Source: a virus
Lineage: Duplodnaviria > Caudoviricetes
Virus record (IMG/VR): IMGVR_UViG_3300046804_002652
Span: 1-54,019 of that record
Reading direction: 5' to 3' (one strand)
Length of the DNA: 54,019 bases
Shown: positions 4,059-33,636 of the stretch, in pieces
Layout: each line of letters opens with the position of its first letter
How positions within the stretch are numbered: the first letter of the stretch is position 1
Notes under the pieces: generated by a model
Told to the model about the DNA's origin: nothing
Database searches by the model: none
What the model saw: the letters and a program-made list of their open reading frames with translations, nothing else
Position numbers and translations under genes: made by a program

Positions 4059-6638
4059 TTACACAAAATTATACTTCAGTTGTATATGTGCATCAGTTGT
4101 TGAACCAGATAGGAAGCTCACCGTCAGGTAATCTGTGGTGTTTGCGGTAAACGAAGCCGCTGTCGCTGACAACGAATACTGTCCAGAAGATATAGTATAT
4201 ACCCCAACGTTTGCTCCATTTTTATTGATTCGGAATGTGAAAGCAGAGCTTGGAGCCGTACTAACAGATGCAGATACACTAGACACACTCATATTTTGTG
4301 GAGGATAGTACCTCACGTTGTCTGCATAAGGAGTAGTAATATTACCAGTTCTTGTGATTGTTAGGTACTTGGTCCCTTCGTCCCCTTTTTGGCCTTTTAC
4401 GCCAGTTGTTCCTAAATCTCCTTTTTGACCTTTTGCTCCGGTCACTCCAACATCGCCTTTGGAACCGAGGTCGCCCTTGTCTCCTTTGACAGTACTTGGC
4501 TCGCCTTTACTTCCTTTGTCGCCGATATCTCCTTTGTTGCCTAAAGGACCTACATCACCCTTTGGACCAATATCACCTTTATCGCCTTTACCAGCATAAT
4601 TTCCTGGCTCACCTTTTGCGCCACCTTGCATAACAAGCACTTCGACAGAAGAGTTGTTTGGCGGAGCTTGTGTAAAAATAATGTTGCTTCCCGACAGCGA
4701 GTAAGTAATCTTATGTTGTACGACACCGTACACAGTTACTATTGTGTGGTTCTTATCGAGAGGAGTAGAAGAAAGAGTGAACTGCGTATTCGAGCCGTTG
4801 CCAGTAAAGCTATTGATTGTAACATCAAACAAGTTAGCCGGACCATCTGCTCCAGCTGCTCCAGTATCTCCCTTGTCTCCTTTTGCAGCTGCTGTGCCTG
4901 GCTCTCCTTTGGCACCCTTATCTCCAAAACCTTGATCGCCTTTTGTGCCTAGCTCGCCTTTGTCACCTTTATCGCCTTTACCAGCATAGGTACCTGGGAT
5001 ACCCTTTTCACCAGTATCTCCCTTTTCGCCTTTATTGCCTTGAGCTTCAACGTTGCCTGGCGCACCCTTTTCTCCCTTAGATCCTCCAGTGAACGTCGTG
5101 ATTTCAAAAGGAGCTCCGCTAGCTATTGGCTCATTGAACGTAATAACATTGCCGACTATCGAATAATCAGTCTTAGATTGCGTGACACCGTTTACTATAA
5201 CAAGAGTGTAATTTTCATTATCAGGAGCAGCGGTCAACGTGAATTGAGTATTTGATCCATTACCTACAAACGAATCAAGCACCAACTCAATTGAGCTTGC
5301 ATCGCCTTTTTGACCTTTATCGCCTAGCGATCCTTTATCGCCTTTGATAGAATCGCCTTGAGATCCCTTATCGCCCTTATCGCCCTTAACGGTACTTGGA
5401 TCTCCCTTATCTCCTTTTGGACCGTTAGGATCGCCTTTGTCGCCTTTAGCACCTGGCGCACCATCGTTACCAATTACGCCATCAGTTCCTTTTTCGCCCT
5501 TATCGCCTTTAGAACCACCAATGTAAGAAGTTACTTCTAACGGAGCTCCATTTGGTATAGCTCCATTGAATGTGATAATATTTCCAACAACCGTATATTC
5601 TGATCTTAGTTGCGTGACGCCATTGAGTACTGCAACAGTATAATTTTTATTGACGGGTGTTGCAGATAACGTAAATTGTGTATTGGAACCATTGCCAGTA
5701 AATGTATCGACAGCGAGATTAATGGAGCTGATATCTCCTTTGTTCCCCTTATCACCTACATCACCCTTGTTACCTTTATCGCCCTGAAGACCTTGGAATC
5801 CAGGTATACCAACATCGCCCTTAGGACCGATGTCTCCTTTGTCGCCTTTAGGTCCGTTTGGTTCTCCCTTTTCACCTTTAGCACCGTCGGCACCTAACGT
5901 ACCATCCAATCCTTTAGCACCAACTTCTCCTTTAGGACCAACGTCGCCCTTGTCACCTTTTGCGCCACCCTCGAACGTTTGCACTTCGATTGGAGCACCG
6001 TTTGATACTGCGTCAGTAAAGATAAGAGTATTGCCGGATATACTATAGTCACTCTTTAATTGCACGACCCCGTTGATAACAACAACGGTATAGTTTTCAG
6101 ATATAGGGGTTTTTGATAATGTGAATTGAGTGTTTGTTCCATTGCCGATAAACGTATCGAGAGTAAGATCTAATACACCCGGCGTTCCTGGCTCACCCTT
6201 TTGACCATCAAAACCTTGATAACCATCTTGACCCTTATCGCCCTTATCGCCTTTGTTACCTTGTTGCTCGACGTCGCCCTTTTGACCTTTGTCACCAATA
6301 GATCCTTTTACGCCAGTCGCGCCAGTATCACCTTTATCACCTTTAGCACCATTGACACCAATAGTACCATCGACGCCCTTATCGCCCTTATCGCCTTTTG
6401 CACCATTGCTACCAATGATACCATCAATGCCTTTATCGCCCTTGTCACCCTTATCGCCATATCCTCCAACTATAGTACTCCAGTAAACGCCCGCACCGTT
6501 AGACATCAGCACGTTGCCGTTTGAACCAGCAGTGCCGTTAGCGGAAATACCTTTCAGGATTACTGTGTTGGCAGTAATATCATCAAAGATGAAATCTTGC
6601 GTTGCGTCTATGCCATGTGGCTTAATCTTCGTTACCAT
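4059..6638 (-). CDS. Collagen-like fibre protein (859 aa) with four FTGNG modules and a C-terminal globular domain
   Basis: Long Gly-X-Y tracts dominated by GDK/GEK/GAK/GQK, four (D/N)(T/S)FxGNG(S/T)NTQFTL..EV modules, and a ~100-aa non-collagen beta-rich C-terminus. Confidence 0.9.
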   Translation of the reverse strand: MVTKIKPHGIDATQDFIFDDITANTVILKGISANGTAGSNGNVLMSNGAGVYWSTIVGGYGDKGDKGDKGIDGIIGSNGAKGDKGDKGVDGTIGVNGAKGDKGDTGATGVKGSIGDKGQKGDVEQQGNKGDKGDKGQDGYQGFDGQKGEPGTPGVLDLTLDTFIGNGTNTQFTLSKTPISENYTVVVINGVVQLKSDYSISGNTLIFTDAVSNGAPIEVQTFEGGAKGDKGDVGPKGEVGAKGLDGTLGADGAKGEKGEPNGPKGDKGDIGPKGDVGIPGFQGLQGDKGNKGDVGDKGNKGDISSINLAVDTFTGNGSNTQFTLSATPVNKNYTVAVLNGVTQLRSEYTVVGNIITFNGAIPNGAPLEVTSYIGGSKGDKGEKGTDGVIGNDGAPGAKGDKGDPNGPKGDKGDPSTVKGDKGDKGSQGDSIKGDKGSLGDKGQKGDASSIELVLDSFVGNGSNTQFTLTAAPDNENYTLVIVNGVTQSKTDYSIVGNVITFNEPIASGAPFEITTFTGGSKGEKGAPGNVEAQGNKGEKGDTGEKGIPGTYAGKGDKGDKGELGTKGDQGFGDKGAKGEPGTAAAKGDKGDTGAAGADGPANLFDVTINSFTGNGSNTQFTLSSTPLDKNHTIVTVYGVVQHKITYSLSGSNIIFTQAPPNNSSVEVLVMQGGAKGEPGNYAGKGDKGDIGPKGDVGPLGNKGDIGDKGSKGEPSTVKGDKGDLGSKGDVGVTGAKGQKGDLGTTGVKGQKGDEGTKYLTITRTGNITTPYADNVRYYPPQNMSVSSVSASVSTAPSSAFTFRINKNGANVGVYTISSGQYSLSATAASFTANTTDYLTVSFLSGSTTDAHIQLKYNFV

Positions 6639-12410: not shown

Positions 12411-19661
<7,251 letters not shown>

Positions 19662-21421: not shown

Positions 21422-24400
21422 TTAAATAAAGAATGTTTGAGTTGCTAGCACCAAATACGTTGGAGATGCAGAGGTCTTTATAATTGTCAAAGTATACACA
21501 TCCATAGCACTACCTGTACCAATCGTTGGAGCTTGACCACCTTGCCATTTTGGAGTTACCGCAACGTTATCAATACGATACGATGTGGGGAAGTATCCTG
21601 TCGTAGCGTTATTGACCATGAATGCTATGGTGATGGAATCTCCAACCTGTGTTATATTATTGAATGTCGTGACGGAGTCCCCACGAATATTTAATATCCA
21701 GTCGTTTGTTGTGGGTGTTGTATAGTATATTACTGCCTTGCTATTTACGTCAATGTTAGTGATTGCCGTAGGAGCACCAGTCGTAATTATATTGGTTCTT
21801 TCGACAATCTCTTCGACTGTTGTAGTATTGGTAATCGATATACCTTTTTTGGCCTCGATAAGAGAATTTGCCGATACAATAGTAGAGTTTGCAGTAAATA
21901 CACTATTGACACTAAACTCATTGACACGCAAGAAGCTATTCGCTGCTGTACTACTAATTGTAATACTTGTTGAGTTGACAATTAGATGTCCATTCACCGC
22001 AACGAGCGACGTTGTGTTAGCTGCCATTACGTTAGCTACATCATTACCGACTGCAATTCCTGAGGTACTGATGACCAGATTAGAAGCTGCAGTTCCAATA
22101 CGCAACTCGGTTGCGCTCATAACTGCATTAGATGTTGCATTTCCTATACGAAGATCGCTTGTTGTCAATCTTCCATTTGCTGTACTGTTACCAATACCAA
22201 GCGATGTTGTATTAACGACAAATGCACCACCTAGAGCAGACGCTTGGGTAGTATTAGCATTAAACGTATTGAAAGTTGCATTTGTGCTTAGTGTTATTGC
22301 AGCAACATCTAATATGACGTTGGCAGACGTATTACCGAACGCAATAGTCGTTGTGTTGGCCAGCAGTACACGAGCACCCGAGTTACCAACTTGAATAATG
22401 GATGTATTAATCACACCATTCGATGTAGTGTTACCAAACGCTATGGCAGCATTAGCAAGATTGACATTTGACGAAGATGTGCCGACAGAAATTTGAGTAC
22501 CGAACTGACCATTAGACACAGTTAACTTGTCTGTAGCTAGTACAGCGTTTGTTCCTGTAGAACCAATCGTAATGCTATCACCAGTTTGAATTTGAGATTT
22601 AGTAATGAATGTATTGACGGTTGTGTTACCGACTGTCAATCTAAACGCGCTAGAGTCAAAAACAAACTGCTCCGATCCGCCATGGAAGTTACTAGCATTG
22701 AACTGTACCATGCCGTTGCTGCCACCAGGACCACCTGACGATGCTCCAGTACCAGGAACAATACGTCCAAATTCTACCCACTGTGAGCTATCAGCATCAA
22801 CGAAGTATGTGTATATCTTACCATCATCAGCATCAATCCATTGATCGCCGTCTTGTGGATCCAAGTGCGGTAATGACCCAAGCGTAATTTTATTACTACC
22901 CTTGAATCCTTTTTCACCCTTTTGACCTTTTTCGCCCTTGAGGTTATCTACGGTAAATTGAGTAGAGTCGCTGTTGGTGAATGTTGTGGTGTTAGTAGCA
23001 TCATCGAATACGGCGCTAAGAATACGCTCGCCTTTTTCGCCCTTCTGACCTTTCTCACCCTTTTCACCCTTTTGACCCTTTTCACCCTTAACACCTTCAA
23101 CAGTAAATGTCGAATCGTCGGAGTTAGTAAAAGTAATGATTGCTGTTGCAGTATCGTACGTTGCTGTCGCGACGCGCTCACCCTTCTGACCCTTCTGACC
23201 TTTAACGCCTAATACACTGAAGGTACTTGTATCAGAGTTAGTGAAGGTAATTGAGTTCTCAATATCACTGAAAACAGCCGTCGATACACGCTCACCCTTT
23301 TGTCCCTTTTGGCCTTTGATACCAATAACAGTGAATGTAGATCCATCGCTGTTGGTGAATTCGAGACCGTTAGTAGCATCATTGAACGATGCAGAACTAA
23401 CACGTTCTCCTTTTTCACCCTTTTGGCCTTTTTGACCTTTGACGCCATTTACGGTAAATGTCGAACCATCACTATTAGTGAATGTAGTAATGTTTGTAGC
23501 ATCATCAAATACGGCAGTCTGTACGCGTTCACCTTTTTGACCTTTAATACCAGCAACCGTGAATGTGGATGCATCACTATTGGTGAAGGTCAGAGAGTTG
23601 GTTAGGTTATCGAACGCGACAGATGTAACTCGTTCGCCCTTTTGACCTTTCAGTCCACTTACGGTAAACGTTGTTGTGTCGGTGTTAGTGAACGTTGTTG
23701 TGTTGGTTAAGTTGTCAAAGACGGCAGTATCAATGCGCTCGCCTTTTTCACCCTTTTGTCCTTTTTGACCTTTAACACCAACAACCGTAAACGTACTACT
23801 ATCAGTATTTGTGAAGGTTAACTTATTTTCAGTATCATTATACGCAACGGAATTGACACGTTCACCTTTCTGACCTTTAACGCCAGTAACGTCATGCGTA
23901 CTACCATCGCTGTTCGTGAAAGTAAGAGTGTTGTTCGCATCCGTAAATGCGGAGGAACTTACACGTTCGCCTTTCTGTCCTTTATCGCCCTTGACGCCAG
24001 TAACACTGAATGTAGTATTATCAGTGTTAGTGAATGTTATTGAGTTTGTTCCATCAACATACGTTGCTGACTGAACGCGTTCACCTTTTTGGCCCTTTTG
24101 ACCGACATCGCCAGTCCTAGCAAAGGTAACTACAATAGATGCAGCATCATCAAACGATGCAACCGATCCTGACAAATAAACAACAGGTACACGAATATAT
24201 CCAGCAAATACAGACATAACGTCTGTGATTGCATACATTACAAACTGTGCAGGATTATTTGGGTTACTGATCTTTATATGGCCTTTGATCTCAGACGTAG
24301 AGTCGTCAATCGTTTGCAAATATGAAAGAATAGTAGTTGAATTTTTATCGACCGGATCAATGAAGATACGATCGCTTAACGGGAAAGTAATTCCGTTAAC

Positions 24401-27076
24401 TTTTAAGTTGCCTGGGCCTGGGTCCGCATCAGTTGTAAGAATGCTGAACACATATTCAAAAGTAGATCCGCCAAATTCCCCAGCGTTACCCTTTTGACCG
24501 ATTTCACCCTTCTGACCTTTTTGACCTTTAACGCCAGTAACAGTGAAGGTACTATTGTCACTGTTAGTGAACGTTGTAGTGTTAGTGGTATCATCAAATA
24601 GCGCGCTACTTACACGTTCGCCTTTTTCACCCTTTTCACCCTTTTGACCTTTTTGGCCTTTCAATCCAACGACAGTGAAAGTGCTATTATCGCTATTGGT
24701 GAAGGTAGTCGTGTTAGTACTATCATCAAACTGACCTTGATTGACGCGCTCGCCTTTCTGACCTTTGAGGCCAGAGACAGTGAACGTGCTCGTATCAGAG
24801 TTAGTAAACGTAGTTGTGTTAGTCTGGTCGTCATAGAGAGCAGAAGATATTCTCTCACCCTTCTCGCCCTTGTCACCCTTCTGACCTTTTTGACCCTTGA
24901 GTCCTAATACAGTAAATGTAGAATCGTCGCTGTTTGTGAACGTCGTGGTATTGGTAGCATCGGTAAATACAGCTGTAGATACTCGCTCGCCTTTCTCACC
25001 TTTCTGACCCTTCAAACCGACAATAGTAAATGTGCTGCTGTCTGTATTGGTTAGTGTTGTGGTGTTTGTGAGGTCGTCGTAGTAAGCGGTGTTGATACGC
25101 TCACCCTTTTGACCTTTAACGCCCTGCTCACCCTTTTGACCTTTATCGCCTTTGATGCCACTGACAGTGAATGTAGTTTGATCCTCGTTTACAAATGTAA
25201 CAACGTCGGTAAGAGGATTATAACTTGCAGATTGTAATTGTCCGCCTTTTTGTCCCTTCTCACCCTTATCGCCAGTCTGACCCTTTTCGCCCAAGTCACC
25301 AGTTCTAGCAAACGTGATCGAAACGTCATCGCCATCAGCAAATGTAGTAGTAGAGCTCGTTACATGCTGAATAGTGACGTTGAAATAACCAGGCGCAGCT
25401 GGGCTTGGCAATATAATAGTTTCGCCAACAATAGCAAAGAACGTAAACGTCTCTGGATTATTCTTCTTAGACATTCTGAAATGTCCACGAATACCAGAAG
25501 TCGAATCATCAATTGTTGCTAGGAACGCTGCGACCGAGACACCAAAGTCGTCCAGGTTGTCAATATACATTCTCGTCGAAGACGAAATAGTAGCAGCATT
25601 AAACCTAATATTTCCTTGACCAGGATCGGAGTTTGTTGTGATTGCGCTATATGTGTAGTCGAACGAAGCACCGCCGAAACTACCCGTACCGCCCTTATCA
25701 CCTTTATCGCCGGTAAATCCCAACTCTCCTTTAGGACCCACGTCGCCTTTATCGCCCTTGTTGCCCTTTTGGCCTTTAACGCCTAGAAGAGTAAATTCAG
25801 ACGAATCGCTATTGACAAACGTAACTGTATCGTTAGCGGCTGTGTAGAATGAGCTTGCGACTTGAGATCCTTTATCACCCTTAGATCCTACATCGCCCTT
25901 TTCGCCCTTTGTTCCTACACCATCTATACCTTTAACACCAGCAGGGCCCTTTTCGCCCTTTAGTCCATACACATCAAAAGAAGATGCATCAGAAACATAG
26001 AATGTAGTAGTATTGTTGGCGTTGTAGAATACACCACCAGTGATACCAGCACCAGTGATACCTTGATCACCTTTCTGTCCTTTATCCCCTTGAGTGCCGT
26101 CAGAACCTTTATCGCCTTTTTGACCCTTGTCGCCATTGACGCCAGAATCGCCTTTTTGACCTTTAGATCCGTCAACACCGATGATACCATCGAGGCCCTT
26201 CTCACCCTTATCGCCTTTCGATCCAGTGCCTCCAGTCGAACCAGATGCACCCTTTTCACCTTTGTCTCCTGTCCGTGTATATGTTACACTGAACGAAGAA
26301 CCGTTGGAATAAGAGTTAGCTCCCGTAACATAGCTGACGGGAATCTCGTAGTATTGAACATATTCGGTTGCAGTGCCTGTTATGCTGAATACAGTATAGT
26401 TGTTCGTAGTCTTGTTGTAGATCTGGAACAACCCTTTAGATACATCCGAAGTACTTCCTGTTGCATACTGGAAGAACCCTTGTGTATCAGCCGTCGATAC
26501 ATCTTTGCGGTGAATGTATAGTTTTGTGGCGTAATATAAGTCAGTGTTACTAAACTTTAATTTACCGTCCGATGGGTCGGTATTAGCAGTGTTAACCCGC
26601 ACATAATCATACGTGAAGGCAACTCCTCCAGGAGTACCTGTATCGCCTTTACTGCCTGAAGGTCCTGTAGATCCTTTATCTCCAGCTGGCCCTAGATCTC
26701 CCTTGCTACCAGAAACTCCCTTTTCGCCCTTGAAGTTAAATCCAATAATGGGAGCTCTATATGTCGTGACGCCATCCGAACTAACAACGAGAGTGTAACC
26801 CATCGCTCCAGCAAACGCTGTATTCGATTGGTCTTCTGGTAAAACATAATCGTAAGAGGCAACAACCCGCCACGTTTCACCTTTTTGTCCTTTTAACGTC
26901 TCACCTTTCTCTCCTTTTGTAGAGAGAGCGACAATTTCTCCTTTAGCATCTTTAGTGAAAAGGAGTTTGTCTGGGAAGTTGACCGCTAATTCACCTACTA
27001 ATAGGTCTTCACCTTTAGGTACTTTGCCAGCTTCCGATGAGCGTTTATGCTGATAAATAAACTTATCTGTTGCCAT
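21422..27076 (-). CDS. Long tail-fibre-like collagen protein (1884 aa) with a T4 gp37-like N-terminus
   Basis: N-terminal KRSSEAGKVP..L.VGELAVN..DK.LFTKD..G.I resembles the T4 gp37 start (KRSK.AG.RP..L.EGELAINL.DR.IFTKD). It carries KGQKGE collagen segments, 18 TFTNSD repeats, three FARTGD-type domains and an N/T/S-rich beta C-terminal part. Confidence 0.88.
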   Translation of the reverse strand: MATDKFIYQHKRSSEAGKVPKGEDLLVGELAVNFPDKLLFTKDAKGEIVALSTKGEKGETLKGQKGETWRVVASYDYVLPEDQSNTAFAGAMGYTLVVSSDGVTTYRAPIIGFNFKGEKGVSGSKGDLGPAGDKGSTGPSGSKGDTGTPGGVAFTYDYVRVNTANTDPSDGKLKFSNTDLYYATKLYIHRKDVSTADTQGFFQYATGSTSDVSKGLFQIYNKTTNNYTVFSITGTATEYVQYYEIPVSYVTGANSYSNGSSFSVTYTRTGDKGEKGASGSTGGTGSKGDKGEKGLDGIIGVDGSKGQKGDSGVNGDKGQKGDKGSDGTQGDKGQKGDQGITGAGITGGVFYNANNTTTFYVSDASSFDVYGLKGEKGPAGVKGIDGVGTKGEKGDVGSKGDKGSQVASSFYTAANDTVTFVNSDSSEFTLLGVKGQKGNKGDKGDVGPKGELGFTGDKGDKGGTGSFGGASFDYTYSAITTNSDPGQGNIRFNAATISSSTRMYIDNLDDFGVSVAAFLATIDDSTSGIRGHFRMSKKNNPETFTFFAIVGETIILPSPAAPGYFNVTIQHVTSSTTTFADGDDVSITFARTGDLGEKGQTGDKGEKGQKGGQLQSASYNPLTDVVTFVNEDQTTFTVSGIKGDKGQKGEQGVKGQKGERINTAYYDDLTNTTTLTNTDSSTFTIVGLKGQKGEKGERVSTAVFTDATNTTTFTNSDDSTFTVLGLKGQKGQKGDKGEKGERISSALYDDQTNTTTFTNSDTSTFTVSGLKGQKGERVNQGQFDDSTNTTTFTNSDNSTFTVVGLKGQKGQKGEKGEKGERVSSALFDDTTNTTTFTNSDNSTFTVTGVKGQKGQKGEIGQKGNAGEFGGSTFEYVFSILTTDADPGPGNLKVNGITFPLSDRIFIDPVDKNSTTILSYLQTIDDSTSEIKGHIKISNPNNPAQFVMYAITDVMSVFAGYIRVPVVYLSGSVASFDDAASIVVTFARTGDVGQKGQKGERVQSATYVDGTNSITFTNTDNTTFSVTGVKGDKGQKGERVSSSAFTDANNTLTFTNSDGSTHDVTGVKGQKGERVNSVAYNDTENKLTFTNTDSSTFTVVGVKGQKGQKGEKGERIDTAVFDNLTNTTTFTNTDTTTFTVSGLKGQKGERVTSVAFDNLTNSLTFTNSDASTFTVAGIKGQKGERVQTAVFDDATNITTFTNSDGSTFTVNGVKGQKGQKGEKGERVSSASFNDATNGLEFTNSDGSTFTVIGIKGQKGQKGERVSTAVFSDIENSITFTNSDTSTFSVLGVKGQKGQKGERVATATYDTATAIITFTNSDDSTFTVEGVKGEKGQKGEKGEKGQKGEKGERILSAVFDDATNTTTFTNSDSTQFTVDNLKGEKGQKGEKGFKGSNKITLGSLPHLDPQDGDQWIDADDGKIYTYFVDADSSQWVEFGRIVPGTGASSGGPGGSNGMVQFNASNFHGGSEQFVFDSSAFRLTVGNTTVNTFITKSQIQTGDSITIGSTGTNAVLATDKLTVSNGQFGTQISVGTSSSNVNLANAAIAFGNTTSNGVINTSIIQVGNSGARVLLANTTTIAFGNTSANVILDVAAITLSTNATFNTFNANTTQASALGGAFVVNTTSLGIGNSTANGRLTTSDLRIGNATSNAVMSATELRIGTAASNLVISTSGIAVGNDVANVMAANTTSLVAVNGHLIVNSTSITISSTAANSFLRVNEFSVNSVFTANSTIVSANSLIEAKKGISITNTTTVEEIVERTNIITTGAPTAITNIDVNSKAVIYYTTPTTNDWILNIRGDSVTTFNNITQVGDSITIAFMVNNATTGYFPTSYRIDNVAVTPKWQGGQAPTIGTGSAMDVYTLTIIKTSASPTYLVLATQTFFI
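22935..26050 (-). repeat. Eighteen ~30-aa TFTNSD repeats joined by KGQKG(EKG) collagen linkers
   Basis: Counted in the 1884-aa translation; boundaries approximate. Confidence 0.85.
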
Positions 27077-27133: not shown

Positions 27134-27141
27134 TATTTATA
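27134..27141 (-). promoter_or_regulatory. T4-type late promoter TATAAATA
   Basis: Exact consensus (tatttata on +), intergenic, about 60 nt upstream of ATG 27076. Confidence 0.8.
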
Positions 27142-27152
27142 CGAAGGCAAAA

Positions 27153-29111
27153 TCAATAATTAATGTCGCCAGGACGGCGAGCTGTCCAAACAACCAGCGC
27201 ATACTTAGTCCCACTAGTTACTTCCCTACCCTCGTGGCCATGCGTCACTTGCCCGGGCCAAAGAGCAATCTTCCCTACAGGAACATTCTCGGTACTAAAC
27301 TTTTGACGTGGGAAATACGTATCTCCACCGGTATAGTCGTCGTTTAAATATGTTATTGTTGAAACTAACGAAGCATCATGGTGGCATGCAAGACTTCGTT
27401 GGGTTTCAGGAGTATATTTAATAATAAATGCATCTCTCAATCCGTACATCTGCAGCGGCCACCAGTATTTTTCTATTACTGGGTTTATATGTTGAGCAAA
27501 ATGCTGTTCAAGTTGATTGAACAATTCAACGTCGAGAACGCGAATTCTCAACTCCTGGCCAGGAAACTTATCTCCATACATCGATTCCCATTTGCCATAT
27601 GCTTCTGCTTTTTCAATCAGTTTTTGGCAGTTTTCACGATCCATAAAGTCTAACATCAATACTTCAGGACCAATGACCTCCAGATTGCCGGGATGCAGCA
27701 TCTCAATTTCTCTTGGCACCAAACCTAGTGCAGCAGTGACTCTCTCAAAACGCGCTTTATCTTCACCACCTCCGTTGCCATGCAAGATGCATGGGCAGCA
27801 ACGAGTAGCCACGTTCAATAATTGCTTGTTTGGTTTGACTCTAACATCTTCTCCTGTTCGAGCTAGACATTGGAAGAGATAGTTTTCATAATCAAGAACG
27901 CACGTGATTCCTGCTTCTGCAAGGAAACGTTTGTCTAAAAACTTCTTCTGCATGTATAGTTGATCGTCAGCAGCATCTTCAATAGGATCAGCAAAAATCT
28001 TTTTAAGAGCGCCTGCTTTACCAATATAAAGACCACTATTGAGATATTTGTACTCTGTGCCGGTATCTGGGAACTCGGAAGCTAGAGATTGTGTTGGCCA
28101 GCAGGTCTTTTCAGCAGCAAACACAACATCTACCGCCATATCTTTATGTCGCTCGAGAATTGTGGTGAGGTCATCGTTAATTACAACATCATACCCATCC
28201 ACAAAAAGAACATTATCATTATCTTTCAAGTCAGCCAAGAAGGCCTTGACGAGATTTATTTTTTGGCCACCGCCTGGGCCTTCCATTGTTCCGCCCTTCC
28301 ACTCAACATTCTTACCTATGTTGACAATAGGAATGTTGAAGCGAGCAGCAGATGTCATTAGCATCTGAGCTTTTGATTCGTCTGTAGCGACTGTAATAAC
28401 ATACGTTTGCGCATCATTCATAATATTTCCACCTTCTATATCCGACCCTAATACTTTTCTCGAGATCTGCGTCACATAAGGGTCTTTAAATGCAGCGACA
28501 GACAGTTTTGAATACTGCTGATATTCCCGAACATGCTTATGCATATTTTCATTAGCGTCCGGGTTGTCTTGATGATCATATCCAATCATGATTGGCACAT
28601 ACTCATCGGCAGGTATAACGTTTGTTTTAATGTGGGTGCTTATTAGTTTCTTCGCACCAGAAGGTGATAGACAATAAGAGCTCAGCAGGTATGGGTACTT
28701 AGGTCGCTGCAAAACTTCGTTTATGGAATCGGCTCCAATCATTTCCCTATATCCCAAATACAACAGCTCATACTGTTCCATTATCTGTTCTATTTGGTTT
28801 AAATTTAATGCTTTTTCTATTTGGATGTCATCTTCAAAAATAATTGCTGGATTTCCACGTTTAACAATTGTATTCCAACATTCAAAGTGACTAATGAAAC
28901 ATCCCACTTCCGTAGTTGTTAAAGGCCTCTTTAATAAAGGATCTCTCCAGATCATATCTGGATTCCATCCCTGCAGTCGAAATTGTTTTAGTCCAATTGC
29001 TCTTCCATCAATTGCAGGAAATCTATTCCACTCATAACCAGCAAGCTGGCGCTCAATGTGAGCTAACCGGTCTGGCCGACGATCCAAATTTATAACAAAA
29101 ATATCAATCAC
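27153..29111 (-). CDS. Putative trifunctional collagen-modifying enzyme: GT25 (COLGALT-like) + PLOD/LH3-like glycosyltransferase + PLOD-like 2OG-Fe(II) lysyl hydroxylase
   Basis: aa 1-228: INLDRRPDR, AIDG, WRDP..RPLT..EVGCFISH..W, FEDD, LLYLG, IPADEY. aa 231-465: VITVAT, EWKGG..GGGQK, LFVDGYDVV, FAAE..CWP, YLNSGLYIG, DDQL, ILHGNG. aa 475-652: FIIKY.P..Q.SL..HHDAS, YTGG, PG..TH.HEG....GTKY. GTG start with a GGAG SD. Confidence 0.9.
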   Translation of the reverse strand: MIDIFVINLDRRPDRLAHIERQLAGYEWNRFPAIDGRAIGLKQFRLQGWNPDMIWRDPLLKRPLTTTEVGCFISHFECWNTIVKRGNPAIIFEDDIQIEKALNLNQIEQIMEQYELLYLGYREMIGADSINEVLQRPKYPYLLSSYCLSPSGAKKLISTHIKTNVIPADEYVPIMIGYDHQDNPDANENMHKHVREYQQYSKLSVAAFKDPYVTQISRKVLGSDIEGGNIMNDAQTYVITVATDESKAQMLMTSAARFNIPIVNIGKNVEWKGGTMEGPGGGQKINLVKAFLADLKDNDNVLFVDGYDVVINDDLTTILERHKDMAVDVVFAAEKTCWPTQSLASEFPDTGTEYKYLNSGLYIGKAGALKKIFADPIEDAADDQLYMQKKFLDKRFLAEAGITCVLDYENYLFQCLARTGEDVRVKPNKQLLNVATRCCPCILHGNGGGEDKARFERVTAALGLVPREIEMLHPGNLEVIGPEVLMLDFMDRENCQKLIEKAEAYGKWESMYGDKFPGQELRIRVLDVELFNQLEQHFAQHINPVIEKYWWPLQMYGLRDAFIIKYTPETQRSLACHHDASLVSTITYLNDDYTGGDTYFPRQKFSTENVPVGKIALWPGQVTHGHEGREVTSGTKYALVVWTARRPGDINY

Positions 29112-29124
29112 TTATAACTCCATT

Positions 29125-31302
29125 TCAATATTCACCAGCATCTAGCGACGACACAAAGGTAGGGACACCCCCTACTATACTTAGCACTTGCATATCAGCA
29201 GTAGCTGTGGCAGTTTTAACTGCTCCTGCTCCATTGCCAACCATTACCGCATTCGTCGGCACAAAGCTTCTTCCCAATCCTCCAGAGCCAACTGCTAGCG
29301 CACTACTCAACGTTAATGTGTTTGCTGCAATCGTTACCGACCATGAACTGTTGGCATTCAGTGTAAGAGATTCTCTTCCCGAGAATAAGCCTCCACTCTC
29401 TAAATAGGAAACAAGCGTTGATAGTGTGAATGATGGACTTGTTCGTAGAACTGTTGTGGTCGGAACTGCTGTTGAGTGTAAGTTTGCAAATAGTACATAC
29501 TTACCGCCATCGCTTGCATCTCTAAACAAACCTGTATATCGGCCTACTAGTCCATCATTATAGTTACCGAAGAAACCAATATCAACAGCATCTGATGTGT
29601 TGTTTGACGATAACTGGAATAGCGGATCTTCGATTTCCATCTTTGCGACGGAGATACGAGTGAAATCACCATCAACGTAAAGATTTCCAGATACAGTCAC
29701 ATCTCCACTAAAGCTACCTCCAGTAGCAATCACGTTGTTGGAGTATACGTTAGCAAAACGTAACGTTGGGCTACCCAAATCATATGTGGTGTTGGCGTTT
29801 GGAACTATATTGCTTGCAAGCGAACCATTGATCGTCAACTTATCACCAGCGCTATCGCCTATAACAACATTGCCAGACAATAGTGCTGTTTGCGCAACCG
29901 ATAGACTACCTTCTACTGTAGCATTGGCTTGGAATGTGGCGTCCCCCGCTTGTACAGAATCGGTATCAACCGTGAAAGTGCCTTCTTGGGTCGATATCGT
30001 GACCCCACCCAAAATAAGAGTTGTACCAGACAAGTACAAATCTTTAAATCGATTATCCGGACTACCAAGCGATTGGATATTGTTTCCTTGAGGAAGAATA
30101 TCCCCAACGACCCGAGCATCAAATCTGATTGTACTAGAAGAATTCCCAAATACAATATTGCCCGAAGTGGTTAATGTATTATTAACTACTAAATTTCCTG
30201 TACTTACCTGTTGACCTACAGACACGTTTCCGTGTATTGTCAATGTATTGGCTTCTACGGTATTAGATTCAATACTAGACACCGTAATGGCATTTGCATT
30301 AATTCCATTAGCTGTAACTGTGCCAACAAACGAAGCCGTGTTACCGAAGGTTGCGGCGCGCGCAACACTGATTGTGTTTCCAAAAGCAACAGTCTTATCA
30401 AAAATAGTTGTGTTCGATACAACTAAATTTACTATCTCCGCGTTAGCAATGATTGCTCTTGGAACGGTCAGCGTGTTAGCAATAACAATATTGTTTGATA
30501 GAGCGACTACAATATCGTTGTTCGAATTTGTAGTCATCCATATATTGTTGTCTGCACCGTGAATGTCTTTATTGACCCACTCGTTGATAGTAGCATCATA
30601 AGCAAGAACTTGTCTATTGACAAGGCCTCCGGCTCCACCAAGTGTGACATCTAATAAGCCATTGAGGTTAATTGCTCCGCCACTGCCGCCTCCTCCACCG
30701 CTATTCAACGTTACCACACTGTCAACGTAGTCTTTTACTGCTTTTGCAGTGACTAGTTCATACGGCGATCCAGCTGGATCTGATCCAAGCTGGGAAGTAT
30801 TGGAGAATAGACTTATCGAGTTGACGGTGACTGAGCCGCCAAGCTGAATACTGCCAAAAGAAGCAAGCTCTGTTGTATTAAGAGCTGGTAAATGTAGATA
30901 AGAATTGGTATCGCTGTTGTATGTTAGGACGGCACCGTTGACGCGGCCTGCATAATCCACATCAAGCATATCGCGAATGTGACGTGCCTGAGCATAAAAG
31001 AATGTGTTTGAGGTATTATCAAAGAATATTGTATCGTTATTGGCTGGTGTACCAATAACATCGCTCATGTCCTCAAGTTTGAGCGGTCTCACGTCATACA
31101 TCTGTGTGTCGACGTTGAAGATCAGGGTGCTGCCTGGTGCACCAACAGACACTGGGTTAATATTGCCCAGGCTTTCGAGGTTTGGACGCTCGCTGACGGT
31201 ATTTTTTAGAACGACAGGCTGTTTGTTTTGAGGTACAAGGCTGCCATCAAGTGGATTGACCTTGACCTTTATTATTTGCTGTGTTGTTAAATTAGTTGCC
31301 AT
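29125..31302 (-). CDS. Tail fibre-like structural protein (725 aa)
   Basis: L.DV..(L/F).Y short repeats, GDILP...LGSP..RF..(L/V)Y repeats, DIGFFG..TGLFRDASD domain, ends LDAGEY; typical of T4-like fibre proteins. Confidence 0.75.
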   Translation of the reverse strand: MATNLTTQQIIKVKVNPLDGSLVPQNKQPVVLKNTVSERPNLESLGNINPVSVGAPGSTLIFNVDTQMYDVRPLKLEDMSDVIGTPANNDTIFFDNTSNTFFYAQARHIRDMLDVDYAGRVNGAVLTYNSDTNSYLHLPALNTTELASFGSIQLGGSVTVNSISLFSNTSQLGSDPAGSPYELVTAKAVKDYVDSVVTLNSGGGGGSGGAINLNGLLDVTLGGAGGLVNRQVLAYDATINEWVNKDIHGADNNIWMTTNSNNDIVVALSNNIVIANTLTVPRAIIANAEIVNLVVSNTTIFDKTVAFGNTISVARAATFGNTASFVGTVTANGINANAITVSSIESNTVEANTLTIHGNVSVGQQVSTGNLVVNNTLTTSGNIVFGNSSSTIRFDARVVGDILPQGNNIQSLGSPDNRFKDLYLSGTTLILGGVTISTQEGTFTVDTDSVQAGDATFQANATVEGSLSVAQTALLSGNVVIGDSAGDKLTINGSLASNIVPNANTTYDLGSPTLRFANVYSNNVIATGGSFSGDVTVSGNLYVDGDFTRISVAKMEIEDPLFQLSSNNTSDAVDIGFFGNYNDGLVGRYTGLFRDASDGGKYVLFANLHSTAVPTTTVLRTSPSFTLSTLVSYLESGGLFSGRESLTLNANSSWSVTIAANTLTLSSALAVGSGGLGRSFVPTNAVMVGNGAGAVKTATATADMQVLSIVGGVPTFVSSLDAGEY

Positions 31303-31304
31303 AT

Positions 31305-31634
31305 TTACCGAGTGACGTTAGGTGTTACTGTTACGATTCCCTCAACAATTCTGGATATCACACCATCTAAACTAGTCAACTCAACATCATAAACATACCG
31401 ACCTGCGACCAAATTTGCCGTTGTATCGGAAGATAGCGATAATTTAATAGATCCGGTGGACGGAACGATTTGCACCACAAAAGGTGTATAAGTGGTCGAA
31501 GTATAATGTTTTCTCATCTGCGCAGCGCCTTGAAACCCGGTCAAGTCAATTGCGTCTTCCGATGTGTCTGTCAGGTTGATTGACGTCGAAAATGACGATC
31601 CCTGATCTATAATAATGTTAGCTTTAATGGCCAT
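31305..31634 (-). CDS. Small conserved virion structural protein (Ig-like; DLTG..AQMRK..GRYVYDV..RIVEG..V.P.VT)
   Basis: Likely start is ATG 31634 (MAIKANIIIDQG) after a GAG SD. The motif pattern is common in non-enteric T4-like phages. Confidence 0.75.
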   Translation of the reverse strand: MAIKANIIIDQGSSFSTSINLTDTSEDAIDLTGFQGAAQMRKHYTSTTYTPFVVQIVPSTGSIKLSLSSDTTANLVAGRYVYDVELTSLDGVISRIVEGIVTVTPNVTR

Positions 31635-31681
31635 AAGCAACTCTTTTATGAAATATACATACAAATAACAGTTTCACAATT

Positions 31682-31689
31682 TATTTATA
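31682..31689 (-). promoter_or_regulatory. T4-type late promoter TATAAATA heading the unit 31634 -> 31302 -> 29111
   Basis: Exact consensus on the minus strand, overlapping the ATG of the divergent plus-strand gene by one base. Confidence 0.7.
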
Positions 31690-32270
31690 TGCCCTTATTT
31701 GACGTGAATTTAATGGACGGAATTGCGCGAGCTTGCAGAAAATATCCCGAGCGAGCCGTCGATATTACACAATCTTTCAAACACAACCAGTTAATATCCA
31801 AACACGAGGTTGTTAAAAACATCCCCAAGTCGAGTAACGTGTGTGTTTTGGGGGGATGGTATGGGGTTGGATTCATGATGATGCGCCACGACAATCAAAC
31901 CAAATACACGTGTATTGATCGAGATTTTATGTGCAAACTGATCGGGGAAGAGATTGATTGCAAACAATTTTCCTTCCAAACCGCTGATGCTCTCACCTTC
32001 AACACCAATCCATACAACCTCATCGTGAACTGCTCGACGGAGCACATGGATAACGAACTATTAAAACAATCGTTTAAAAATATCAACTTCCATAAGCTGT
32101 GCATTTTTCAAAACAACAATAATTTCAACGTACCCGACCATATTAATTGCTTTCACACTTTGAGTGAGTTTGAGGAATATTTAGGAGAAGACTTTTCCAT
32201 TCATAGTGCAACAGAGACTATAATGGATAACAACACAAAAAGGTATACGGTCGTATGCAGAAAAATGTAA
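31689..32270 (+). CDS. Class I SAM-dependent methyltransferase-like protein
   Basis: VCVLGGWYG motif I, acidic CIDRD, TADA, LIVNCSTEHM, FQNNN, RYTVV final strand. Confidence 0.7.
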   Translation: MPLFDVNLMDGIARACRKYPERAVDITQSFKHNQLISKHEVVKNIPKSSNVCVLGGWYGVGFMMMRHDNQTKYTCIDRDFMCKLIGEEIDCKQFSFQTADALTFNTNPYNLIVNCSTEHMDNELLKQSFKNINFHKLCIFQNNNNFNVPDHINCFHTLSEFEEYLGEDFSIHSATETIMDNNTKRYTVVCRKM

Positions 32271-32923
32271 TAGTATGCCTGCTGGTTGGCGACAAATACG
32301 ATCCTCTGTACGTGCGCAATCTTTTTAATATGACAAAACGCTGGTGCAGTGCATCATTCGATTTTGTGTGTTACACGGACGTTCCTCTTAGTGGAATCGA
32401 CTGCATCAAAATAGACGACCCTAACAAGTACGAGCCTGTCTGGTTCAAATTAGAAATATTATCCTTAAAAGAACTTTCAACGTATACACACAAAGCCTTT
32501 TTCGATTTGGATGTTGTAATACACAACAATATAGACTGGATATTTGAAGGAAGCAGGGATCCTAATCTTCATGTCATCCAATCTAAATGGAAGCATCCAG
32601 AAGAAATCAATTCTTTTCGGAATACAGGCTGCAACTCTAGCGTAATGCTTTGGCAACAGGCTAGCGATATATTCAATCAATTCAACGCCTCGCCAGACTT
32701 GTATATGTCAAAATACACAGGAATGGATAGATTCTTGTGGCACGAAACAAAAGCGTGGTCTTTTTTGAAAGAAGAACAAGTATATTCTTACAGCGGCGGA
32801 GCATCATTAGAAGATAATACTCCACATATTATGCGAGCAAACCGAAGCGTTTGCATATACAACCAGTATCCTAAACCCCACGAACAACTTGGATTAGAAC
32901 CAGCAAGGACTTTTTGGAAATGA
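32255..32923 (+). CDS. GT-A fold glycosyltransferase
   Basis: VCLLVGDKY..YV..L, FVCYTD, WFKL, FFDLDVVI (DxD), NSSVMLW, YTGMDRFL. Confidence 0.75.
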   Translation: MQKNVIVCLLVGDKYDPLYVRNLFNMTKRWCSASFDFVCYTDVPLSGIDCIKIDDPNKYEPVWFKLEILSLKELSTYTHKAFFDLDVVIHNNIDWIFEGSRDPNLHVIQSKWKHPEEINSFRNTGCNSSVMLWQQASDIFNQFNASPDLYMSKYTGMDRFLWHETKAWSFLKEEQVYSYSGGASLEDNTPHIMRANRSVCIYNQYPKPHEQLGLEPARTFWK

Positions 32924-33636
32924 AAGTATACACTGTTTGCACCCTTCCGAAATACCATCCTTACGATGTGTATAGACTACACCAACAACTGCAAGTTTTT
33001 TATACAAAGCCTGTGGAGATGTATTGCTATACAGATCGTCCTGATCTTTTTAATTCTACCATCAACGTTATTCCTATTAATCACCAATTATGTGAAAGAC
33101 AGTGGTATAAAATTGATTTCTTCAAACCTGGGTTTGTGCAAGGAGAGGATCCTATTATTATAATGGATCTAGACTGGACAATATATGATGAGGTAGATTC
33201 TATTCTCGACGTCCCAATCGAGAAGAACGAGTTTTATGCGGTCGATAGATGGTGGCGAGGTGAAGACGATCCATTAGAGATTAATGGAGGAATGTATAAA
33301 GTTTATCCTAATACGTGTACGGAGCTTTATAATATCTTTTATAAAGACCCTACCCACTGGCAATCAACATACAAACAAAAACATGATATCACTGCAGTAA
33401 TAGGTGAACAAAATTTTGTATTTGAACATATACGCAACACCCACACGCTAAAGAAATTTCCTGGCATACATTTGGGTAGGAACGCATATACGCTACCGCT
33501 GCGTACTCATTCGTCTCCTACAAGAGCTCGACACTTAATGATAGAGTATGCGGAAATCTATATGAAAAAATTTAACCAATCCTTTTATTACGGCGATGAG
33601 GATTGGAATCCCAACATAATCATGATGCATGGATAG
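32920..33636 (+). CDS. GT-A fold glycosyltransferase, same family as the preceding gene
   Basis: ATG 32920 overlaps the upstream TGA (ATGA). Motifs TVCT.PKY, YCYTD, WYKIDFF, IMDLD (DxD), INGG, GEQNF. Confidence 0.72.
   Translation: MKVYTVCTLPKYHPYDVYRLHQQLQVFYTKPVEMYCYTDRPDLFNSTINVIPINHQLCERQWYKIDFFKPGFVQGEDPIIIMDLDWTIYDEVDSILDVPIEKNEFYAVDRWWRGEDDPLEINGGMYKVYPNTCTELYNIFYKDPTHWQSTYKQKHDITAVIGEQNFVFEHIRNTHTLKKFPGIHLGRNAYTLPLRTHSSPTRARHLMIEYAEIYMKKFNQSFYYGDEDWNPNIIMMHG

Follow-up and report, generated by a model that had tools for sequence, protein, structure and literature searches.

To our knowledge, the O-glycosylation of hydroxylysine (Hyl), which is seen as a hallmark of animal collagens, has been shown outside animals only for two giant-virus proteins, L230 and R699. 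The subject of this work is a gene of a tailed phage whose product resembles the animal enzymes and these viral ones. It is located at 27153..29111 on the minus strand (stop codon included) of a 54-kb stretch of DNA, positions 1 to 54,019 of the IMG/VR virus record IMGVR_UViG_3300046804_002652 (estimated completeness 31%), the whole of which is here called the window, and it encodes 652 amino acids (aa) comprising a GT25 glycosyltransferase (GT) domain, a PLOD-type GT domain and a lysyl hydroxylase (LH) domain. Mimivirus L230 is a viral protein that modifies lysines of viral collagen; its N-terminal GLT25D1-like GT (E106-D107-D108) adds glucose (Glc) and not galactose (Gal) (PMC9614988), and LH and glucosyltransferase (Glc-T) activities are the only ones reported for it. 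R699 acted on Gal-Hyl, and the data did not support an action on Glc-Hyl (PMC9546862).

The sequence-only reading of the window had proposed that this single protein encodes the whole animal pathway of collagen lysine hydroxylation and glycosylation, in three consecutive domains with intact catalytic motifs. The three domains were recovered by Pfam (Glyco_transf_25, GT_PLOD and 2OG-FeII_Oxy_3) as well as by sequence and fold matches in the PDB, and every motif that had been named lies in the translation at the residues given for it, namely WRDPLLKRPLTTTEVGCFISH at 55-75, E93-D94-D95, D305/D308, C337-W338-P339, D382-D383-Q384, H444-G-N-G447, H577/D579, H626 and K636. The reported domains and motifs are real, far beyond what chance would produce. 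A comparison of the whole protein with PDB sequences rendered LH3 (7e-45, in two stretches, GT and LH), R699 (7.2e-29), COLGALT1 (5e-23) and the LH domain of L230 (1.7e-09), residues 227-448 of the enzyme being aligned with LH3 30-257 and residues 476-642 with LH3 558-735. An AlphaFold2 model built on a 37-member alignment of homologues has a mean predicted local distance difference test (pLDDT) of 91.2 and a predicted template modelling (TM) score, pTM, of 0.51, so that the domains are modelled with confidence and their mutual arrangement is uncertain. A Foldseek search of the PDB with this model placed LH3 at the top (E 3.3e-33; for its GT domain, 6wfv, TM by target 0.87 and root mean square deviation (rmsd) 2.0) together with R699 (1.9e-19, rmsd 2.5), COLGALT1 (9evj, 2.8e-18, rmsd 2.9 over 247 columns) and the LH domain of L230 (6ax6, TM by target 0.76), while a bacterial GT25 beta-1,4-galactosyltransferase (2.5e-09) and prolyl hydroxylases (~1e-07) were found far behind. 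Best matches to GT25 enzymes of lipopolysaccharide (LPS) synthesis or to prolyl hydroxylases had been set beforehand as grounds for abandoning the proposal; by both sequence and fold, the best matches are to COLGALT and PLOD.

Domain 1 (residues 1-226; 28434..29111, minus strand) is, by sequence and fold, a COLGALT1-type GT25 with a GT-A fold, including R12, H75 and E93-D94-D95. Pfam Glyco_transf_25 (PF01755) covers residues 1-119 (E 5.5e-24). In a phmmer search of the PDB, residues 1-233 alone matched only procollagen galactosyltransferase 1 (COLGALT1; 4 of 4 distinct sequences, E ~4e-23), and no bacterial GT25 sequence was matched at E up to 0.01. The similarity to human COLGALT1 (PDB 9evj, and chain U of 8zgc) extends over residues 3-177, which align with its catalytic GT2 domain with FEDD on FEDD, and the COLGALT1 motif that the sequence-only reading had quoted (YRDP..RPLTKGELGCFLSH..FEDD) is present in the printed COLGALT1 alignment. 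In that protein, Glu435-Asp436-Asp437 constitute the Mn2+/UDP (uridine diphosphate) site of GT2, and there is an additional non-catalytic GT1 domain that binds nucleotide sugars (PMC12003778); GT1 and the dimer contacts of COLGALT1 are missing from the phage enzyme. Among 167 compact three-domain members, taken from similarity searches with the enzyme as query, E93, D94 and D95 are kept in 164, 163 and 164, respectively, the exceptions being mostly alignment gaps and one D94-to-E change. Column counts on the printed alignment put R12 (Arg in 129 of these 167 members) on COLGALT1 R351, and G70-C71 on G411-C412. The bacterial GT25 galactosyltransferases of LPS or lipo-oligosaccharide synthesis (8xlz, 8xkd, 'beta-1,4-galactosyltransferase') share the GT-A/GT25 fold, but they act on lipo-oligosaccharide and have neither a fused oxygenase nor a PLOD-type GT.

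Domain 2 (residues 232-462; 27726..28418, minus strand), delimited by the LH3 alignment and Pfam, resembles the PLOD/LH3-type glucosyltransferases, with GT_PLOD at residues 234-448 (E 2.6e-55). Counting columns on the printed alignment, W271, K284, D305, Y307 and D308 correspond to LH3 W75, K89, D112, Y114 and D115; E334, W338, N358, D382, D383 and Q384 to E141, W145, N165, D190, D191 and Q192; and H444 and N446 to H253 and N255. LH3 D112, D115 and H253, located here by the alignment, are the residues that we take to be its Mn2+ site, and their counterparts D305, D308 and H444 are kept in 167, 166 and 166 of the 167 compact members. E334, W338, D382, D383, N358, Q384 and N446 are also present and kept in 157-166 of them, and the LH3 mutants E141A, W145A, D190A and D191A lose Glc-T activity (PMC10342707).

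Domain 3 (residues 472-652; 27156..27698, minus strand), delimited by alignment with LH3 and L230, is an LH-type oxygenase dependent on 2-oxoglutarate (2OG) and Fe(II), including H577, D579, V622, H626 and K636. Its Pfam match is marginal (2OG-FeII_Oxy_3, residues 565-643, E 6e-06, 27.6 bits for a cut-off of 27); residues 470-652 alone matched, among PDB sequences, only LH3 (1.3e-12) and L230 (2.4e-10), in 6 of 6 cases. H577, D579 and H626 fall on the Fe2+ triad of LH3 and L230, and each is kept in all 167 compact members. Lys636 does occupy, as had been noted, the site of the 2OG-binding Arg, since in the alignment it falls on the Arg within the LH3 stretch 'GTRYIMVSF' (position 729 in chain 8zgc_A); in L230 it is Arg887 that binds the 2OG C5 carboxylate (PMC5802723). 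This position is Lys in 152 and Arg in 15 of the compact members, and Arg in 35 and Lys in 3 of 38 long forms (described below), so that a basic residue is kept and the function of the 2OG site is probably retained. Structure prediction gave an LH-domain homodimer with an ipSAE score of 0.68, against 0.00 for the best of 3 controls. In calibration, 20 of 30 proteins solved as pairs of one chain scored this high, and so did 1 of 23 solved as single chains (rough counts, own alignment used); contacts agreed to at least 82% between runs, and the pLDDT of the partner was at least 87. The predicted interface includes residues 619-625, V622 being four residues before H626, and in the L230 homodimer L873, at the same offset before H877, is inserted in an aromatic pocket (PMC5802723). 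The prediction may however express a likeness to, or a memory of, the solved LH3 and L230 dimers.

The accessory domain of the PLOD proteins is indeed absent, as had been stated: GT_PLOD ends at ca. 460 and the LH fold starts at ca. 476, and in the model a single helix (449-461) lies between them, followed by the LH strands. The gap between GT_PLOD and LH is shorter than 50 aa in 179 of the 225 proteins that bear both domains, the enzyme included. A signal-like N-terminal segment is also absent from the sequence, which fits work in the cytoplasm. Compared with human LH3 (PLOD3; PDB 6fxk, 8zgc), the phage enzyme has homologous GT and LH domains with the Mn2+ and Fe2+ triads, and has Val where the dimer-contact residue would lie; on the other hand, it lacks the accessory domain and the signal peptide, bears an extra GT25 in front, has Lys for Arg729, does not keep W92/W148, and is phage-encoded and presumably cytoplasmic. 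Across the 167 compact members, the catalytic positions of the three domains are kept in 156-167, a range that narrows to 163-167 for those that bind metal. The members of this set are only 30-70% identical, with ca. 20 catalytic positions near-invariant.

These features suggest, with a good degree of likelihood, that the enzyme is a cytoplasmic, self-contained modifier of collagen lysines that is synthesised, like the tail fibres, late in infection, and the most likely function would be the hydroxylation and O-glycosylation of Y-position lysines of the fibres. The chemical steps, the sugars and the purpose are inferred, the steps from homology. The C-terminal domain, probably as a homodimer, would use Fe2+, 2OG and O2 to convert the Y-position Lys of G-X-K-G into 5-hydroxylysine while the chains are still unfolded. 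The N-terminal GT25, with Mn2+ on E93/D95, would then use a UDP-sugar to attach a hexose to the hydroxyl thus formed, beta-Gal by likeness to COLGALT1 or possibly Glc by the L230 precedent, and the middle PLOD-type GT, with Mn2+ on D305, D308 and H444, would add a second hexose, alpha-1,2-Glc by likeness to LH3 and R699. On the resulting fibres, as many as 368 candidate sites would carry Hyl or glycosyl-Hyl. Possible purposes are the stabilisation or solubilisation of proline-poor triple helices, the shielding of lysines from proteases, or host recognition. More tentatively, the protein may be a self-sufficient trifunctional enzyme that, within the cytoplasm of the bacterium, furnishes tail fibres with glycosylated Hyl (Glc-Gal-Hyl or something closely similar), and the 'animal' pathway may be part of an older or horizontally shared system of prokaryotes and viruses.

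That the substrate is collagen is backed by the gene context, both the fibre block of the window and the co-occurrence in other genomes. Directly downstream of the enzyme gene, at 21422..27076 on the minus strand, a collagen-like fibre of 1884 aa is encoded (Pfam Collagen 9.8e-30; 96 G-X-K-G sites), with Lys at 85 of 138 Y positions and at none of the X positions, which is the likeliest substrate of the enzyme. Two other collagen-like fibres are encoded further downstream on the same strand: one of 2416 aa (12411..19661), with 407 triplets in runs, Lys at 194 of the 407 Y positions and 209 of its 230 lysines in G-X-K-G, and a tail fibre of 859 aa (4059..6638; PHROG tail-fibre and collagen-like minor-tail families), with Lys at 59 of 121 Y positions and 63 of 81 lysines in G-X-K-G. 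Neither of them has Lys at X positions. Altogether, 368 of the 440 lysines of the three fibres lie within G-X-K-G, and no such site is found in the enzyme itself or in the non-collagen fibre protein of 725 aa encoded next to it. The architecture of the 1884-aa fibre recalls beads on a string, with ca. 20 very short collagen segments of 3-8 triplets (e.g. GLKGQKGEKGER, GxKGQKGEKGER) that alternate with a module of ca. 27 aa (..TFTNSDxSTFTV..; 12 copies by a strict pattern).

A search of 20 complete cultured phage genomes detected the collagen family PF01391 in 4/4 that encode the full-length enzyme and in 1/16 that do not. The comparison is not phylogenetically independent, since S-PRM1, S-CAM9 and S-8S55 share one module and the independent events are thus few, and a single phage provides the control of collagen without enzyme. 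That phage, ACG-2014f, has a Thr-rich collagen with Lys at 3 of 132 Y positions. The full-length homologues of cultured phages, which share 34-42% identity with the enzyme and bear the annotation 'hypothetical' or '2OG oxygenase', are located in fibre modules beside a collagen run with Lys at 26-44% of the Y positions. A collagen-like frame was found in the fetched flank of 48 of 80 IMG/VR loci, Lys being the commonest Y residue in 27 of these 48 and among the top three in 46. Five pelagimyophage-like records had no collagen frame within 10 kb, and four of them carry PF01391 elsewhere. An IMG/VR control of 80 baseplate-wedge-related loci was set aside, as these were mostly short fragments and only distantly related, and 16 complete genomes of cultured phages took its place. 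In bacterial genomes, collagen-like frames adjoin 14 of the 16 loci that match at least two of the domains, including loci in complete chromosomes of Arenicellales and other Gammaproteobacteria, and none of 63 single-domain loci, which are nearly all an LH domain alone, mostly in Ilumatobacteraceae. The frames usually share the strand of the multi-domain locus and end shortly upstream of it, and at least 5 Lys at Y were counted at 12 of the 14 loci.

Several observations weigh against the proposed role in collagen modification. Regarding the enzyme, LH3 W92 and W148 are not kept, L287 and Q341 being found in their place; these two residues are not essential in LH3, since W92A keeps 43-71% and W148A 13-70% of the activity in the table of mutants (PMC10342707). 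Lys is found where LH3 and L230 have the Arg that binds 2OG, and the region of COLGALT1 Asp570, the C-terminal loop partner of the Arg351 salt bridge, lies outside the sequence alignment, D224, nearly invariant in the 37-member alignment, being a mere candidate for its equivalent. The first sugar is uncertain, Gal or Glc, because the GT25-like domain of L230 adds Glc, and no UDP-Gal-forming enzyme or UDP-glucose 4-epimerase was recognised in the window. Regarding the context, many of the IMG/VR loci are near-duplicates, 32 of the 80 have no collagen-like frame in the fetched flank, one 70-kb record (42% complete) has no collagen repeats at all, and two viral loci with collagen-like frames (L017, L019) have Lys outside the top three Y residues; similarly, two of the bacterial loci (L214, L217) adjoin only Pro-rich frames with at most 1 Lys at Y. 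Lysine at Y is moreover not specific to enzyme-bearing phages, given that Arg plus Lys account for 38.1% of the Y positions in viral collagens and for 31.0% in the collagens of Escherichia coli prophages, which are enzyme-free (PMC3368898, Table 4). The lysine pattern of the fibres is therefore a feature that a substrate would need to have and not proof, and Lys at Y was dropped as a decisive discriminator. Finally, no biochemical or proteomic report for any member of the family was found in the open-access literature.

It can also be the case, although we consider it rather unlikely, that the substrate is the same collagen-like fibres and the chemistry differs from that of the animal pathway, with the GT25 adding Glc, the two GTs adding alternative single sugars, or one of them being structural like the GT1 of COLGALT1. 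The Glc transfer by the GLT25D1-like domain of L230 (PMC9614988), the non-catalytic GT domain of COLGALT1 (PMC12003778), the lack of a recognisable 4-epimerase in the window and the existence of phage variants with one GT (GT25 with OGFOD2-like/2OG, or PLOD-type GT with 2OG) are all in line with this; however, both GT domains keep full metal-binding and catalytic sets across the 167 members, which argues that both are catalytic, and R699, a PLOD-type GT, acted on Gal-Hyl, the data giving no support for an action on Glc-Hyl (PMC9546862). A target other than collagen repeats appears improbable, be it the LPS or envelope glycans of the host or the lysines of proteins unrelated to collagen. Several members are labelled by JGI as LPS-biosynthesis GR25 glycosyltransferases, glycosyltransferases of the tail-fibre hypervariable region of pelagimyophages have been proposed to alter the host surface (PMC7029224), and the 32 viral loci without a collagen-like frame in the flank would fit such a target, but the GT25 domain matches COLGALT1 and no bacterial GT25 sequence in the PDB at the threshold given above, bacterial enzymes being the weaker match also by fold, a fused LH-type oxygenase has no role in LPS synthesis, and collagen genes co-occur with the enzyme in phages, IMG/VR records and bacteria.

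An oxygenase combined with glycosyltransferases is also the logic of DNA hypermodification, as in the glucosylated hydroxymethylcytosine of T-even phages and in base J, with the oxygenase hydroxylating a base and the two GTs glycosylating it. This general logic in a T4-like phage is all that speaks for such a role, to which we attach a nearly negligible probability: Pfam gives no Tet_JBP match, the top folds are LH3 and L230 and not nucleic-acid oxygenases, and the gene lies in a fibre module, the same fusion being found beside collagen genes in bacterial chromosomes. Very little chance is likewise given to an inactive relic, or to a structural or chaperone protein for fibre assembly. Nothing specific favours it, the uncertain inter-domain arrangement (pTM 0.51) being the one feature that would leave room for it, and it is at odds with the near-invariance of the catalytic positions across such divergent members.

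Returning to the enzyme as a collagen-lysine modifier, the family to which it belongs comprises 5712 representatives at E up to 1e-3, 241 at 1e-30, and 487 encoding stretches in IMG/VR. The nearest Atlas clusters have 52-262 members of ca. 617-623 aa, 98-100% viral and mostly Uroviricota. By these sequence counts the compact fusion is not a rarity but part of a large, mostly phage family. NCBIfam has no model that matches the enzyme, and homologues appear, as had been anticipated, under generic labels such as 'GR25 family glycosyltransferase involved in LPS biosynthesis' (JGI) or 'hypothetical'; the UniProt name of one homologue from an uncultured phage is 'procollagen-lysine 5-dioxygenase'. 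The view that no bacteriophage example had been characterised also held, inasmuch as searches of open-access papers and bioRxiv found no phage lysyl hydroxylase or collagen glycosyltransferase; a description may nevertheless exist.

The 274 proteins that were classified had been picked by similarity to the enzyme and are thus not an unbiased census; 38 of them, ca. 830-1190 aa long (829-1541 aa over the whole set), are L230-like fusions in which GT25 and GT_PLOD are followed by an accessory or OGFOD2-like region and then by LH/2OG. These 38 include the metagenomic proteins P0161, P0166, P0173 and P0183 besides 34 others. P0173 (899 aa) matches COLGALT1 (4e-40), LH3 (14-714, 5e-102) and the L230 LH domain (2e-53), and the Megavirus L230 homologue K7YEL3 aligns along the whole enzyme (948 columns). 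The only long-form Atlas cluster listed (881 aa) is mostly viral, with Nucleocytoviricota the commonest. The passages on L230 in the review consulted make no mention of the middle PLOD-type GT of these long fusions. L230 and its kin (K7YEL3, P0173) thus resemble the phage enzyme in having a viral GLT25D1-like GT joined to a PLOD-like part, but they keep the accessory domain, mostly have Arg at the 2OG site, and are separated from the compact forms in the GT_PLOD tree. R699 (PDB 9dyt, a collagen galactosylhydroxylysyl glucosyltransferase) shares the PLOD-type GT domain but consists of GT and accessory domains only, without hydroxylase or GT25. The protein had been put forward as a compact natural fusion of all three activities, and judged from these sequences the novelty lies in the compact, accessory-free form of phages and bacteria, whereas the principle of fusing a GT25 with a whole PLOD (GT, accessory and LH) was already known from L230-type giant-virus proteins. 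In a FastTree phylogeny of GT_PLOD, for which 156 of the 265 domain rows were used (every row of the other classes, whereas the 167 compact rows were thinned to 57, every third one plus the query), the compact forms split from the accessory-bearing ones, i.e. the long fusions and the animal-type PLODs, with a Shimodaira-Hasegawa (SH)-like support of 96; the tree is unrooted and its rows bear no taxon names, so that no direction of transfer can be read from it.

If the proposal is correct, the chemistry would extend to tailed phages and some bacteria; on the more tentative reading, and taken with the bacterial relatives beside collagen-like genes, the 'animal' glycosylation of collagen lysines would belong to an older, or horizontally shared, fibre-modification system of prokaryotes and viruses. 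It would occur here in a minimal format of ca. 620-650 aa, without accessory domain, endoplasmic reticulum signal or partner protein, linked to hundreds of potential fibre sites. This raises the questions of whether phage fibres bear glycosylated Hyl and how it affects adsorption, stability and protease evasion, of how the LH, Gal-transfer and Glc-transfer steps cooperate when fused without the accessory domain, and of the origin of the PLOD/COLGALT system. The production of glycosylated human collagen in bacteria is not yet possible, in part because the human glycosyltransferases are difficult to express in them (PMC9546862). An enzyme that naturally works in the bacterial cytoplasm would be an obvious candidate for such production and, if the three activities are real, a one-gene tool for glycosylated recombinant collagen in E. 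coli.

Nearly all the large open reading frames (ORFs) of the window are on the minus strand. Their products include proteins of the baseplate wedge, of the tail fibres and of fibre assembly besides the collagen-like ones, and this gene content identifies the window as the tail module of a large myovirus of the T4-like type. The baseplate wedge protein shares only ca. 33-34% identity with its counterparts in Sinorhizobium phage phiM19 and Caulobacter phage Cr30; its match to cyanophage proteins covers just part of its length. For most of the ORFs neighbouring the enzyme gene, no family was found by Pfam, PHROGs or NCBIfam. The enzyme ORF starts with GTG, 13 bases past the stop of the preceding fibre gene, and a GGAG ribosome-binding site, read directly from the sequence, lies six bases ahead of it (29118..29121, minus strand); the homologues in the 37-member alignment start at the same point, with the consensus MKxFVINL. 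The preceding gene (29125..31302, minus strand) belongs to the same block and encodes the 725-aa non-collagen fibre protein (PHROG tail fibre 8.9e-09), and the first gene of the block (31305..31664, minus strand) encodes a tail-fibre-assembly-like protein of 119 aa (phrog_1084, 4.5e-29; phrog_3304, L-shaped tail fibre protein assembly, 4.8e-25). In the gap ahead of this block (31664..27153), a candidate T4-type late promoter, TATAAATA, was found by motif match at 31682..31689 (minus strand), and a second TATAAATA lies at 27134..27141 (minus strand), between the enzyme gene and the gene of the 1884-aa fibre. This motif is the T4 late-promoter consensus; its two occurrences in the window are not above chance (shuffle mean 3.6), both being in minus-strand gaps before gene starts, and promoter and terminator scans of the window gave nothing reliable above shuffles. 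Within the minus-strand fibre module there is a plus-strand island (31689-33636) with three ORFs of 193, 222 and 240 aa. None of the three matched Pfam or NCBIfam, the last one matches the PHROG glycosyltransferase phrog_1962 (1.3e-12), and these ORFs may be further glycosylation genes.

Some variants were observed around the homologues in other genomes. Synechococcus phage ACG-2014f (L209 1035-2123, L210 1646-2524) lacks the fusion and has a separate GT25 of 292 aa and a separate 2OG oxygenase of 362 aa whose match spans the entire LH portion of the profile (7.5e-12). In S-CAM9 and S-8S55 (L003 8830-9995, L005 8815-9995), two small 2OG-Fe(II) oxygenase genes, which may encode further fibre hydroxylases, are located directly upstream of the fusion gene, and in the collagen run close by, roughly half of the X positions are occupied by Pro. 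An 'NAD dependent epimerase' near the cyanophage homologues is uninformative as to a UDP-Gal supply, since it scores 63 bits for a GalE cut-off of 262 and about equally for heptose epimerase. Stand-alone domains 37-43% identical to LH residues ca. 475-642 are common in freshwater metagenome-assembled genomes (MAGs) of Ilumatobacteraceae and other Actinomycetota (L229-L290); no collagen-like frame was found within 8 kb of them, so that they probably act on a different substrate. A gammaproteobacterial MAG chromosome (L224, 6005-13998) and the loci L218-L223 and L227 bear a GT25 plus GT_PLOD gene, with or without LH, flanked by one to three collagen-like genes in which Lys is commonest at Y, and by gene content these loci resemble a cellular counterpart of the phage system. 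Finally, in pelagimyophage-like L078 (42-8756; relatives L045, L054-L056 and L077) eight clustered ORFs of ca. 350 aa precede the fusion gene, four of them with weak radical-SAM or SPASM matches, and tail-sheath genes lie downstream.

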